Shown one piece after another: positions 30,856 to 58,838 of a DNA stretch of 64,000 nucleotides. Origin of the DNA: Octopus vulgaris (lineage: Eukaryota); NCBI GenBank assembly GCA_951406725.2, contig OX597831.1, forward strand, positions 31,186,001 to 31,250,000, in the 5' to 3' direction. Position 1 is the stretch's first letter. The number at the start of each line of letters is the position of its first letter. Below the pieces are notes generated by a model that was not told where the DNA came from, ran no database searches, and worked only from the letters and a program-made list of their open reading frames with translations. The position numbers and the translations under genes are program-made.

Positions 30856-31346
30856 GAATATATTGTATAAAAGATCGTAGGTAAGAGTAAAACAATGCGA
30901 AGTAAATGCAAAGTAAATCACAAGAAAACAAATATATGAATTAATGCAGACTTACCTTGTATTCAATATTTTGGGGTTATGACCCTATTTTCAAGAAATT
31001 GACGAATGTTTCCGATGTACGTGTGTGTGAGCGTGAGTGGAGTGGACATGCGCAGAGGGGTGTTGCTATAGCAACCAGCTAGCTTCCTGTAACTCCCGAA
31101 AGAAACCCAAGATCAATAATAGAAGGGAATTACAGGAAGCTAGCTGGTGGCTATAGCAACACCCTCATGCGCATGTGCACTCCATACATGCTCACACACA
31201 CGCACATCGGCAACATTCGTCAATTTCTTGAAAATGGGCTCATAATCCCGAAATATTGAATACAAGTTAAGTCTACGTTAATTCACATTTGTTTTCTTGT
31301 GAGTTACCCTGTATTTACTACCCACGAACTTTTATACAATATTTTC
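30856..31346. repeat. Long inverted repeat (~220-bp arms, 27-nt spacer)
   Basis: Arms 30856-31097 and 31125-31346 are reverse complements with scattered mismatches and one ~20-bp indel. Confidence 0.92.
31225..31260 (+). ncRNA. Minimal hammerhead variant (U3-A8)
   Basis: TTC TTGAAAA T GGG[CTCATAAT]CCC GAAA TA TT GAA. Confidence 0.5.
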
Positions 31347-31689
31347 TACACAATGCTTCACAGTAATTATATATACATTTGTTGCTCTACAGTCTTATAA
31401 ATTATTCACATAGTCAAGAAGCTAAGAGAATATGATGTAATCTTGACGTACTTGCTCTGTTGTATTTTAATTGTTTCAGTTCTTCTTACTGATCTACGTA
31501 AAGATTAACCCTCTTTCTGTCACAGGTTTCACTTAATACACTACGATACCCACAATTACGCACTCATATATACATACCCTGACTAACACGCGCGCGCGCA
31601 TGCATACATTTATCTCCAACTTAATTTAGTCAACAATATATTCACCAAACCCTGTATATACACATGTTCAGTTGTTTTACAAGGTGCAC

Positions 31690-32890
31690 CTCAGAAGTTT
31701 TCAGTCTTTCTCAGGAGAAACAATTATTAATTTCAAAGACGTACAAAACTCTAATCCCTTTCAAAGTAGGATCTCTGACGTCAATAGGCTTGTAGTTACT
31801 CTAGCCACTTTGTGAAGGCCCCTTGGAGGTCCTACAAAGTGAAAGTGCCCCGGACGCTTTTCACAGTCTCCTTCATATTCTCAATGTCTTCATATTCTCA
31901 ATGACTGCCGCTAAAGTTCTCCATCTGATTGGGGATCAACCAAGAGTCACAGACAGTTAGGAGGGTGAAGAAGAGTTTTATTGCCCATCTTTGTCAAGTA
32001 GTTTGTAACTAGGATAGAATTGTGGATTAGGGTATTACTCTGGTATAGGATCCACTGAGTGGAAGAGTTCTGACCTTTTGCAACGTAATCTCTTCTTGAA
32101 TTGCCTCAAAACCTCAACAGAGTACTCTTTGTTGACCGTCTGACCAAAGGGAACCAGTAAATGTAGATGATACCTTTATTTCCGAGAAAGGGTCTCATCA
32201 TGAGCTTGCCAGTGTACTTGCTTTGCTGGACATTCTTGGATCTGGGGGGAACCAGGCTTCTTCTACTGGACTTTCTGTCTTCTGTTCTTTGGACCATATC
32301 TGTAGATCCAGCTTTCGTCACAAGTCACCAGAGACTCAAGTACTCTTGAATTGGAGGTAATGAGTTCAACCATGCGCTTGTTGTCGCCAATGCGTTTTCC
32401 CCTTCTGTTCGTCACTAAGAATCCTAGGAACTAACTATGCACAAATTCTTGCGCATGTGCAGCTCTTCATCAATAATTTTGTAAGCGCTTGCCATACCAA
32501 CTCCAAACTGTATTTTTATCGTCTTTATAGACAAACGACGGTCTTCGTCCAGAAAATCGCGTATTTTCTCATCCAGCTCTGATGTTCTGACGTCCTTCTC
32601 CCTCCCACACTTTTCATCATCTCTCTGCCATCATTGAAGCGCTTGTGTCATCAGAAACAGACGCTCGCCTCATATCAGTTAACCTAGCAACCGTCTGGAG
32701 TATTTCACAAGTTTCTGTAGCTATTTTGCCCAGTTTAACATAAAACATTATTGTATTGTGAGCTTCCAAATTGTCTTCACGTCCCGTCTTTATTCTGCAA
32801 AGTAGTCAACTGTGACAAGCGACGCTTAGTAGGCTATGTTCAAAGCACTGTTACAATCTGGAAGAAAAATTTCGCATTTTAGCTTATTAA
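31690..32890 (-). mobile_element. Decayed mariner transposon
   Basis: Translates to LVTCDESWIYRY, KGIIYIYW, GQTVNKEY and LLHPP mariner catalytic motifs, with disablements. Confidence 0.8.
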
Positions 32891-56270: not shown

Positions 56271-58578
56271 TATTCTAACGATTATTATTTCGTTCAATAG
56301 AATAAATAGAATGTGGAAATTGATATTTATGATATTGCTTTAATCTCGGCTTGAGAAGCATTGTTCTAAAGTTGATGGTTAAAAACCACTAATATTTTTG
56401 CTTCTGCTTTATATATAAGAAATAAACGACAAGACGCAGGAGAAATGTTGCAAGACTTTATTGTGTATTAGTCTTCATGTTATTACTCTTTTCTTCGTTG
56501 GATGCGGAATTAATTTTAATGCGGATATAAACCGTCGTAAACCGTGACATATAACATCCCCATTTATTCGAGTGTAATATAATCATATAAACTTTATCTT
56601 ATGTATTAGGAATTTGACGTCTTCCAGCACGAACAGGCAGTTTAGGTTTCTACATTCAAATACATCAGAGATGTAAATACCCATTTATCCTTAATTGCTG
56701 TCAATAACATAGGTACTAGCTGTATGTTGATATCATTTTATCTACATCACTACAACATTGACTCTAAATTTCTGCGTAGCCAAAAGAAATCGTCATAACG
56801 TATAACTTTTGTATGATGTACAATACCTAAGATGTATTGTTGCCGTCGTTCTTGTGTATTTTTACTATTTAGTCAAAGAGGGAAGGGCAGCGTCCGAAAC
56901 CTTATATTGTCTTAGGGTTGATAAGACTGATCGGCGAAAGGGATTTTCAAATCAGAAACGTGGTCCAAATATTTGCAATAGAGTAAACTCTGCTAAAACC
57001 ACCAATGGACCAGGTGGTGGTGGTAAATAAGGCGACGAAATATGTCTACTATCGGGAATTTAAAAAGCAAAGAGCCGGGACAACTGGTACAAAGCTATGA
57101 CAATTCCGCTAATCGTTCACTCTGATCAACCCCGAAAGAATGAAAGGTAAAATTGATCTCGACGGCTTTTGAACTAAGTGCGCATATATCCGAGACAAAT
57201 ATCTCCTACACACTAACCACTCTTCCAATTCTCAGCTATTATAGATACGTCGGCTTTTGCCTAGCACTCTCATAGCATTCAATGTAAACTGCTAAACAGC
57301 TAGACACGATCCACAGTTCTAGTTTTCCAGTTAAACAAAGTGTACCACTTAACTAAGGAACATGCTGCATTATCTAGCATATAGTGATGAATCGTGTTGA
57401 GCATAGCAGTATAACTGTCACAAAATATTTCAGTCTCTAAACACTGTTTCTGTATTTGTTATTATTGCTTATCTAAATGTCAAATTTGATAGGATAGACT
57501 TACGATCAAAGGTATTCTAGCCATGACCATCATGTCTTTCGGATGGAATATCAAGGACAAAAAATACAGTATCCTATTTTCTAAGGCGGTGGAGTGTGAT
57601 TTGGGGTATATTTTGGCATCTGTTTCTAGTAAGTCAAATGGATGTAGAGGCGTCCACATTGGATAGTGTGTGCATCTTTCTTGTTGTTTAACCCCAGAGT
57701 GGTACTGATTGAACAGTGCTACGATAAAAGACATTCCAATAATCACAATCCTTTCTTCTCATTTTTCAAGTTTCATATAACTAATGCTACAATGTGGTAT
57801 TTTAAGACTGTATGGTATGATTGAAAAGAAACTTTGTTGCTATTTCTAGCAAGTCAAGCAACCTCGCCGAGGCTCTCTTGTAGCAACAGTGTAGCTCCCT
57901 TGTAGCAGTAACAAACTGAGCCTTTTTTTCTCATGCCTAGATCTTTCAATTTTAGTGTATTAGTTTTGTTATGACGGTGAGCTATCCGTGTGGTCTGTGT
58001 ACAGCCTTTTAGAATGGGTCCATGCACTGTTATGTACAATTTGTATTTTATCATGGTTTGTCTTCCGGCTCGTTACGTTCTGAGTTCAAATCTTTTAAAG
58101 GTCAGCTTTGCTTTTCATTCTTTCACGACAGACGCAAAACAGAACCAGTCAAGTACTGGGGTTGATGTAATCGACCTGTCTCCTCGGCAAAGCTTGCAAC
58201 ATCCTTTATGGGTCTAATGCATTGTTTACACACCATTATTGTTTCATTCTGTTCGACAATCTAGATATCTGTGAACGTACTTTGTAGGTTTGCATGTAAT
58301 TTTTCTTTCTTCACTATATCTTTTATGGGTGTGTGTGTGAGGGAGAGAGAGAGAGAGAGAGTTAAAGTGTGTGTATGTGTGTGTGTGAGAGAGAGTGTGT
58401 GTCTGTGTGTGTGAGTGTATGTGTATATGTGTTTGTGTGTGAATAATGATAGCCTCATGAGTGTTATGTAGTTAGTTTTGTAGCTAAAGTTTGTAACCTG
58501 GTGGAACAGCTGATTAAATTGGTGATGATATTCTATTATACTATATATACGTACATACACACACACACACACATAGTT

Positions 58579-58838
58579 TAATGAACTCAGTATATAATTT
58601 TTTATTAGCTATAACAGTTTCATACAATGTAAACGACAGAGACAGCATATTATAACACGTCTGATGCCTTTATACAATCTTTAAGCTGTGCTCACACGGC
58701 ATACACAAGCTAAAACATGCCATGTGAGCACAGCCTGAAGATTAATAAGGGCACCAGACATGTTATAAAATGCTGTCTGTGTCGTTTTCATTGCAGGAAA
58801 CTGTTAGTAGCTTATAAAAATATATACTGTGTTCATTA
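58579..58838. repeat. Inverted repeat (~122-bp arms, 14-nt spacer)
   Basis: 58579-58702 versus 58717-58838. Confidence 0.9.
58732..58812 (+). ncRNA. Type I hammerhead ribozyme with long stem II
   Basis: AGC CTGAAGA [stem II including CAGACA/TGTCTG] GAAA CTGTTAG TA GCT; GUA triplet. Confidence 0.65.

Follow-up and report, generated by a model that had tools for sequence, protein, structure and literature searches.

Predicted hammerhead ribozymes in palindromic and tandem repeats of an Octopus vulgaris contig: probable traces of Penelope-type retrotransposition

Hammerhead ribozyme (HHR) motifs are found in four palindromes and three further repeats within a 64,000-nucleotide stretch of Octopus vulgaris DNA (contig OX597831.1, positions 31,186,001 to 31,250,000; G000:C18:31186001-31250000 in our numbering, G000 being the 2.8-Gb genome), hereafter the window. 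The palindromes are labelled P1 (at 30856), P2 (36552), P3 (40239) and P4 (58579), and the further motifs S1 (33288), S2 (40075) and S3 (44975). The palindromes are very probably by-products of Penelope-type retrotransposition: a copy of the element that has lost its 5' part would have been inserted head-to-head with another copy, and the palindromes contain the hammerhead because of its location in the 3' end of the element. Judged by sequence, P1 and P4 are the 3' ends of Penelope-like elements (PLEs) that code for a GIY-YIG domain (P1) or a GIY-YIG-like domain (P4), with a reverse transcriptase (RT) linked for P1. Published PLE biology accounts for the palindromes themselves. The likely new part is a long-stemmed form of the HHR that seems common in this genome and is undetected by Rfam.

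With simple repeats masked, a search of the window for inverted repeats returned 30856-31350, 36552-36926, 40236-40866 and 58575-58842. These are the four inverted repeats reported in a preliminary description of this DNA, which also called them mutually unrelated; sequence comparison agrees, as it detects no real homology among the four. Each belongs to a multi-copy family, and a first look at the genome gave 1123 candidates for P1, 1122 for P2, 1805 for P3, 428 for P4, 1648 for S1, 2652 for S2 and 3749 for S3. The best 40 candidates of each family search were scored, a set of top matches biased to close, complete copies; consensuses were built from 24-29 fetched copies per family, with four overlapping P1 loci dropped. 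The parts of the palindromes and of the three further repeats are listed below (ORF, open reading frame; UTR, untranslated region).

30856..31097, minus strand: P1 left arm, an inverted, 5'-truncated PLE 3' end without tail.
~30962-30997, minus strand: HHR of the P1 left arm, with G12A and G10.1A, likely dead.
31097-31153, plus strand: remnant of the GIY-YIG ORF in the P1 right arm, its last ~19 codons.
31101..31370, plus strand: P1 right arm, with the end of the GIY-YIG ORF, the 3' UTR and the tail.
31225..31260, plus strand: P1 minimal HHR, with the U3-A8 core variant, an extra U after A9 and G10.1-C11.1.
~31347-31370, plus strand: P1 tail, on this arm only.
33061..33588, plus strand: S1, a 497-nt ORF-less unit followed by the first 31 nt of another, between (TA)n tracts.
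33288..33352, plus strand: S1 HHR, with an intact core and a basal A.C in the 29-nt helix II region.
36452..36853, minus strand: P2 long arm, which has the tail and belongs to an ORF-less 497-nt tandem unit.
36703..36778, minus strand: P2 HHR, with an intact core and a basal U.U in the 45-nt helix II region (~18 bp).
36853..36926, plus strand: P2 short arm of 74 nt; it breaks off downstream of the HHR, lacks a tail and abuts (TA)20.
40000..40209, plus strand: S2, a 210-nt repeat between (TA)n tracts.
40075-40113, plus strand: S2 HHR of the window, with the family core CUGUNGA (A6U) plus U4C and C11.1U, likely dead.
40236..40583, minus strand: P3 left side, an arm (40236-40511) plus a 69-nt local duplication.
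40590..40965, plus strand: P3 right arm, which carries the tail and belongs to an ORF-less ~555-563-nt tandem unit.
40606-40679, plus strand: P3 HHR, 44-45-nt helix II region with C.A at its base.
44733..44780, minus strand: inverted copy of the S3 3' tail, 48 nt, head-to-head with S3.
44778..45073, plus strand: S3, with a tRNA-like head (~44797-44853), (AAT)n and a minimal HHR (44975-45021).
58573..58717, minus strand: P4 left arm, without tail; HHR core mutated, likely dead.
58717..58905, plus strand: P4 right arm with tail, the 3' end of a PLE whose C-terminal domain is GIY-YIG-like.
~58727-58813, plus strand: P4 HHR, with an intact core and a partly decayed helix II region of 56 nt.

In each palindrome, the arms finish at the family 3' end and meet at ragged 5' truncations, and the tail is found on one arm alone. 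The head-to-head HHR pairs of the preliminary description are present in P1, P3 and P4, where the left-arm HHR is mutated in its core (G5A in P3, likely dead). In P2, the right arm (74 nt) has no HHR; P2 is therefore not an HHR pair, and the motif on its long arm is the sole HHR of that palindrome. The S3 motif had been described as solo, but 48 nt of the S3 3' tail recur, inverted, at the 5' end of this repeat. An inverted copy on the 5' side recurs in P1 (9/24 copies), P2 (14/25), P3 (13/28), P4 (5/28), S1 (14/22) and S3 (10/23), overlapping or duplicated loci being dropped from this count and from the tandem and (TA)4 counts. The 3' end is followed by (TA)4 in 16/24 copies of P1, 25/25 of P2, 24/28 of P3, 16/28 of P4, 21/22 of S1 and 22/24 of S2, against a background rate of 773/3480 in a similar-sized window. 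For sequence beyond the families, a flank set of 174 loci was used (572 kb, ~72 kb of which is family sequence; 28 window-overlapping or duplicate loci left out), which is a non-random genome sample. Around the HHRs of these flanks, (TA)5 lies within 300 nt downstream in 19/35 and upstream in 15/35, a modest excess over the background of 1043/3480.

This layout is that of known PLE insertions. These have been described as containing an inverted copy that lacks its 5' part and a tail of 30-40 bp on one side only, with a bias for microsatellites, and the window palindromes equal the layout drawn there (Craig et al., 2021, PMC8557442, Fig. 2). Minimal HHRs lying on opposite strands at distances of 100-700 bp have been described, as have the U3-A8 core and the extra nucleotide after A9 (Cervera and de la Pena, 2014, PMC4209133). 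The elements studied here are like HHR-bearing PLEs in the 3' position of the HHR, the palindromic helix III, U3-A8 and the extra nucleotide after A9, and also in the opposite-strand HHR pairs, the inverted 5'-truncated copy, the one-sided tail and the microsatellite targets (PMC4209133; PMC8557442).

The motifs themselves were recognized with a type I HHR descriptor that was written and tuned after seeing the seven window motifs, and dinucleotide shuffles of the consensuses served as controls. Exactly one passing HHR is present in each consensus (7/7), on the outward, sense strand, and none passes on the antisense strand of the seven; shuffled consensuses pass in 0-2/500. Individual copies pass in 8/24 cases for P1, 22/29 for P2, 18/28 for P3, 5/29 for P4, 24/24 for S1, 24/24 for S2 and 11/24 for S3. 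The whole window holds five passing sites (shuffle mean 0.58, maximum 2 in 40 shuffles); four of them are family sites and the one at 61896 is unexplained. The match at 61896 is weak, with an A6U core and a short helix III, lies outside the studied families and may be due to chance. The core (CUGANGA, GAAA and UH) and three helices are present in 7/7 consensuses, with U3-A8 in P1, A6U in S2 and a U at position 17 in P1, P2 and S3; excluding the query, S2-like copies read CUGUNGA in 14/17. P1, S2 and S3 have minimal PLE-type motifs, and the window HHR of P1 (31225..31260) has a palindromic AUAU helix III and one helix II mismatch. A further S2-like repeat at 36298-36425 is 5'-truncated inside the HHR and followed by (TA)n; it keeps helix II and GAAACGT, the first core half being absent.

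Coding capacity links two of the families to PLEs. Longer copies of P1 extend upstream into an RT (RVT_1, E=7.8e-10, at locus L197, colinear with the arm), and a GIY-YIG domain (PF01541, E=2e-4, 22.0 bits, just below the cut-off of 22.6) lies upstream of P1 copies, C-terminal to the RT. A weak protein search aimed at longer relatives of the P1 endonuclease piece came back empty at E<=0.001. Longer copies of P4 reach a Cys-motif and a Cys-rich YIG-type segment 440 nt upstream of the HHR, and all fetched P4 copies are too short to reach the RT region; the P4-type domain has 5883 first-look candidates in the genome. P1 and P4 both show two features of endonuclease-positive (EN+) PLEs, the inverted 5'-truncated copy and the one-sided tail; the fetched copies of both families are all incomplete, and direct repeats around a full ORF are seen in another family of the genome. 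The preliminary description called all of these repeats ORF-less, which holds for S1, P2 and P3 but not for P1, with its RT and GIY-YIG, or for P4, with its GIY-YIG-like domain; the link to such frames that it had suggested seeking is found in these two families. This is a young, intact PLE family: eight fetched loci (L265-L272, e.g. G000:C6:133343000-133349500, with many identical-scoring copies) have a 781-codon RT plus GIY-YIG frame and are 89.7-99.7% alike. Several of these loci have (TA)n flanks and direct pseudo-long terminal repeats (pLTRs) 99-100% alike, the pLTR length in the family being 450-510 nt. The family has a long A/C-rich upstream region and ~93-nt tandem repeats in the 3' UTR, its close relatives carry a U3-A8 HHR, and it is a candidate helper for the ORF-less units.

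The ORF-less units S1, P2 and P3 are, on sequence grounds, retrozyme-like, that is, members of the retrozyme or non-autonomous PLE kind. What lies upstream of them is the previous unit of a tandem, not an ORF; head-to-tail periods are 496-497 nt in S1, 497-499 nt in P2 and 552-563 nt in P3, and direct partial tandems are found in 19/22, 7/25 and 7/28 copies, respectively. Each unit has one type I HHR, and the longest stop-free frame is 67-75 aa (one tandem locus each). The S1 family is very young, with copies 98-99.5% alike (one duplicated locus 95%). The 1500 nt common to the upstream side of two P2 loci was rejected as an ORF, since it is a 97% duplicated segment. Folded as circles, the S1 and P2 units have predicted z values of -4.0 and -5.3 (40 shuffles). 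Retrozymes have been described as HHR tandems that lack an ORF and are expressed as circles, PLEs being their likely helpers (PMC7229834; PMC7761336), and vertebrate retrozymes have been read as non-autonomous PLE derivatives from co-occurrence and pLTR homology (Li, Clavereau and Pollet, 2026, 10.64898/2026.07.22.740005), a study in which 1/9 tested retrozyme dimers cleaved. S1, P2 and P3 are like metazoan non-LTR retrozymes in their head-to-tail units, which lack an ORF and contain a single type I HHR, in predicted strong self-pairing as circles and in co-occurrence with autonomous PLEs (PMC7229834; preprint 10.64898/2026.07.22.740005). They differ in unit length (497-563 nt, compared with 170-400 nt in PMC7229834 and 51-972 in the preprint), in a long, non-canonical helix II and in mostly comprising 1-2 units. 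S1, P2 and P3 do not show the canonical type I form, in which helix II is short and loops 1 and 2 are in contact; their helix II region spans 29-45 nt. PLE-type inversion and tail, present here, are not reported for retrozymes in the accessible parts of PMC7229834 and the preprint.

S1, P2 and P3 could also be solo pLTRs of autonomous PLEs that were locally expanded by recombination, rather than trans-mobilised RNAs. The unit of ~500 nt matches the pLTR of the intact PLE family, and an origin from pLTRs with local amplification has been proposed (preprint 10.64898/2026.07.22.740005). Such an origin is nevertheless unlikely, as copies are spread over many chromosomes, are 98-99.5% alike in S1 and have truncation and inversion points of their own; in the fetched tandem copies, which come from the biased top 40, the tail is always followed by the next unit and never by an ORF.

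S3 has its HHR and an optional tail as its 3' end and a tRNA-like head within 520 nt in 17/24 fetched copies, mostly behind the same short leader. ARAGORN made no tRNA call for this head; the A- and B-box-like motifs (~44797-44853) were read by eye from the general consensus of such boxes and are putative. A promoter-plus-HHR arrangement is known in Schistosoma, in the alpha repeats, which resemble short interspersed nuclear elements (SINEs) (PMC6765202), and S3 is similar in the order of tRNA-like head and HHR. Unlike these repeats, S3 copies show PLE-type head-to-head inversions (10/23); literature searches returned no mollusc example. ORF-less units that bear PLE-type inversions, one of them tRNA-headed, appear to be new.

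Several observations weigh against a common Penelope-type origin of these repeats. S2 has neither an inverted nor a tandem copy in its 24 top matches (0/24). In the S3 family just 2/23 copies have (TA)4 after the 3' end, so that the (TA)n association of the preliminary description holds for six families (16/24 to 25/25 copies) and not for S3, which shows no (TA)n preference. The flanks outside the seven families contain 49 palindromes with arms of at least 60 nt, of which 42-43 lack a passing HHR, in a count that short or decayed arms would escape; an outward HHR is present in 6/49 by the strict and 7/49 by the relaxed version of the search, and an inward one in none by either. The generalization that every long palindrome is an HHR pair thus fails beyond the window. 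Three near-perfect palindromes of other families (L016:177-1068, L073:483-824 and L201:8068-8499) have a passing long-helix-II HHR on both arms. The YIG-type segment of P4 has no Pfam match, and we take the P4 domain to be GIY-YIG-like from its likeness in motifs and from the 5883 first-look candidates. Finally, S1, P2, P3, S2 and S3 have no sequence link to any fetched autonomous PLE, and comparison of the ORF-less units with the 781-codon PLE or with 30 GIY-YIG loci gives short AT-rich matches alone.

Penelope-type retrotransposition would produce the observed structures as follows. Tandem transcripts would be cut at hammerheads working as dimers through the palindromic helix III; dimer cleavage is proposed because the helix III palindromes are predicted to pair between two copies instead of folding alone. 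The resulting unit-length RNA, possibly circular, would be copied by the RT of an autonomous PLE, whose endonuclease would have nicked a (TA)n tract before copying. Copying of more than one unit would leave a partial tandem, and a second, truncated, inverted copy would make the palindrome. The palindromes are predicted to fold into 111-270-bp duplexes, in which the sense arm of a read-through transcript would be buried and its hammerhead silenced. Since such a transcript has one sense arm, the pair presumably cannot be a ribozyme dimer in cis.

The preliminary description inferred a single ORF-less ribozyme retroelement system. The elements indeed appear to be PLE-related retroelements that bear HHRs and target microsatellites, and an ORF is lacking in three to five of the seven families; palindromes are moreover frequent (49 in ~500 kb of flank) and are predicted to form long duplexes. 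A dedicated system, whose unit would be the head-to-head HHR pair or its long double-stranded RNA (dsRNA), is however very improbable, given that P1 and P4 represent the ends of coding PLEs, P2 holds one HHR, the left-arm HHRs are core-mutated, just one arm is sense in any transcript, and HHR pairs on opposite strands were interpreted in 2014 as truncated PLEs (PMC4209133). The palindromes are flanked by TA, and short terminal inverted repeats of the DNA-transposon type do occur in the window (38020/39098, 51950/52377, 59751/60316), but fold-back DNA transposons or miniature inverted-repeat transposable elements inserting at TA, with incidental HHR motifs, are hardly credible and were rejected in view of the variable 5' truncation (arm lengths vary freely among copies, many of them one-armed), the tail on one arm, the RT and GIY-YIG upstream of P1 and the sense-strand-only HHR in every consensus.

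What published PLE biology does not describe in the searched sources is the form of the hammerhead itself. P2, P3, P4 and S1 have 29-56 nt between the core halves, predicted to fold as a long helix II with a U.U, C.A or A.C mismatch at its base, and their helix III is a 6-12-nt palindrome; that of S1 contains a 12-nt perfect palindrome (helix I, 6 bp) and that of P2 is 9 nt. In modelling, 5/6 motifs have helix III palindromes that pair as dimers but form no hairpin in isolation. By comparison, published metazoan minimal HHRs have a helix II of up to 7-8 bp with a conserved G10.1-C11.1, far shorter than the helix II region here (PMC4209133; PMC8557442), and a published core search used a 7-17-nt spacer (PMC8557442); U10.1-U11.1 and A6C variants are on record (PMC3088659). 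None of the 138 Rfam matches of the window at E<=5 is to a hammerhead family, 10 loci gave no match at the gathering score, and the HHRs could not be aligned across families with MAFFT.

The same form recurs in the flanks, where about ten families also carry a 29-68-nt helix II region and 35 descriptor matches lie outside the seven families (4-6 in three shuffles). Because the descriptor had been tuned on the window motifs, a separate test was run on the flanks that combined the core, a perfect helix III palindrome, a helix I of at least 4 bp and a 22-75-nt spacer, and placed no demand on helix II. It found 15 distinct sites, compared with 0 in each of 10 shuffles. Spacers fold with paired ends at 13/15 flank sites, as opposed to 19/300 random segments. 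When 32 loci carrying the P4-type domain were examined, a passing HHR lay 317-439 nt downstream in 10 (five with long and five with short helix II), a near-miss core in 8 and neither in 14; antisense matches occur in 2 loci. In 22 aligned P4-clade HHRs, picked because they show the motif, 82% of cells pair and two-sided changes affect 5/10 pairs; the covariation score is 0.271 vs 0.151 (0/500 shuffles, top among slid controls), with relatedness uncorrected, and two pair-type measures are not significant (106/500 and 52/500).

This long-helix-II class appears undescribed in the searched literature on octopus and cephalopod hammerheads and on PLE helix II; published supplements may list such cases, and repeat databases such as Repbase/Dfam may already contain the families by different names. 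For Octopus vulgaris, 31 recently active Penelope-like families are listed in a repeat annotation, which leaves ribozymes unmentioned in the accessible parts of the paper (PMC13282606). Among Naiad PLEs, core halves 35-50 nt apart are listed, with no structure assigned to them, for eight Naiads, one of them from octopus (PMC8557442, Methods and File S1, 'HHR_half_core'). Naiads are similar to the present elements in (TA)n targeting, inverted copies and a half-core spacing like the long helix II, and differ in an N-terminal endonuclease, which is C-terminal in P1 and P4; by eye, without alignment, the listed octopus Naiad 3' ends have no resemblance to the seven families. It is possible, if on balance somewhat doubtful, that a large overlooked class of type I HHRs with long helix II and palindromic helix III cleaves as dimers and sits both in autonomous PLEs and in ~500-nt ORF-less circles now mobilised by intact PLEs, with a tRNA-headed SINE on the same machinery, and that the same fold explains the Naiad half cores.

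The window contains other repeats as well. Near-intact non-LTR retrotransposon frames of 584 and 650 aa (RVT_1, E=1e-22) lie at 3923-7630 on the minus strand with (TTA)n flanks, in an element that we take to resemble R4/Dong elements; decayed relatives are found around 2100-2900 and 8100-12800. A GC-rich hairpin ending in CTAG at 30160-30235, directly before a (TA)n tract, is presumably a Helitron-type 3' end. A degenerate 71-nt tandem array of about 6-9 copies occupies 34802-35433. The short terminal inverted repeat pairs lie at 38020-39098 (60 nt), 51950-52377 (28 nt) and 59751-60316 (35 nt); the last presumably encloses a mariner-like fragment, for which no Pfam match was found, and a further remnant near 31900-32800 is likewise assumed to be mariner-like. 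An abundant tRNA-headed SINE with internal (TA)n is present in several copies, e.g. 38223-38609, 41360-41751 and 15540-16057.

The octopus belongs to an animal group known for heavy A-to-I editing, and dsRNA formed by the palindromes is a plausible ADAR substrate in view of the predicted duplexes. For S1, no run recorded as RNA is listed as containing the repeat. Contigs from runs guessed to be RNA cover S1 and P1, and one holds a head-to-tail joint; the joint is also present in genomic DNA and therefore gives no verdict on circles. A>G differences are shared by the largest run, which is likely DNA, and give no verdict on editing. Being frequent, PLE-made palindromes are a candidate source of dsRNA in a heavily editing animal group. 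Long-helix-II HHRs are missed by standard tools, and the number of hammerheads counted in animals may therefore be too low. Some PLEs regarded as HHR-less may need a second look; if the proposed fold is correct, Naiads, said to be without hammerheads, would have them. The young, ORF-less S1 family, with its PLE-type scars and intact candidate helpers in the same genome, offers a direct test case for the proposal that retrozymes are mobilised by PLEs.

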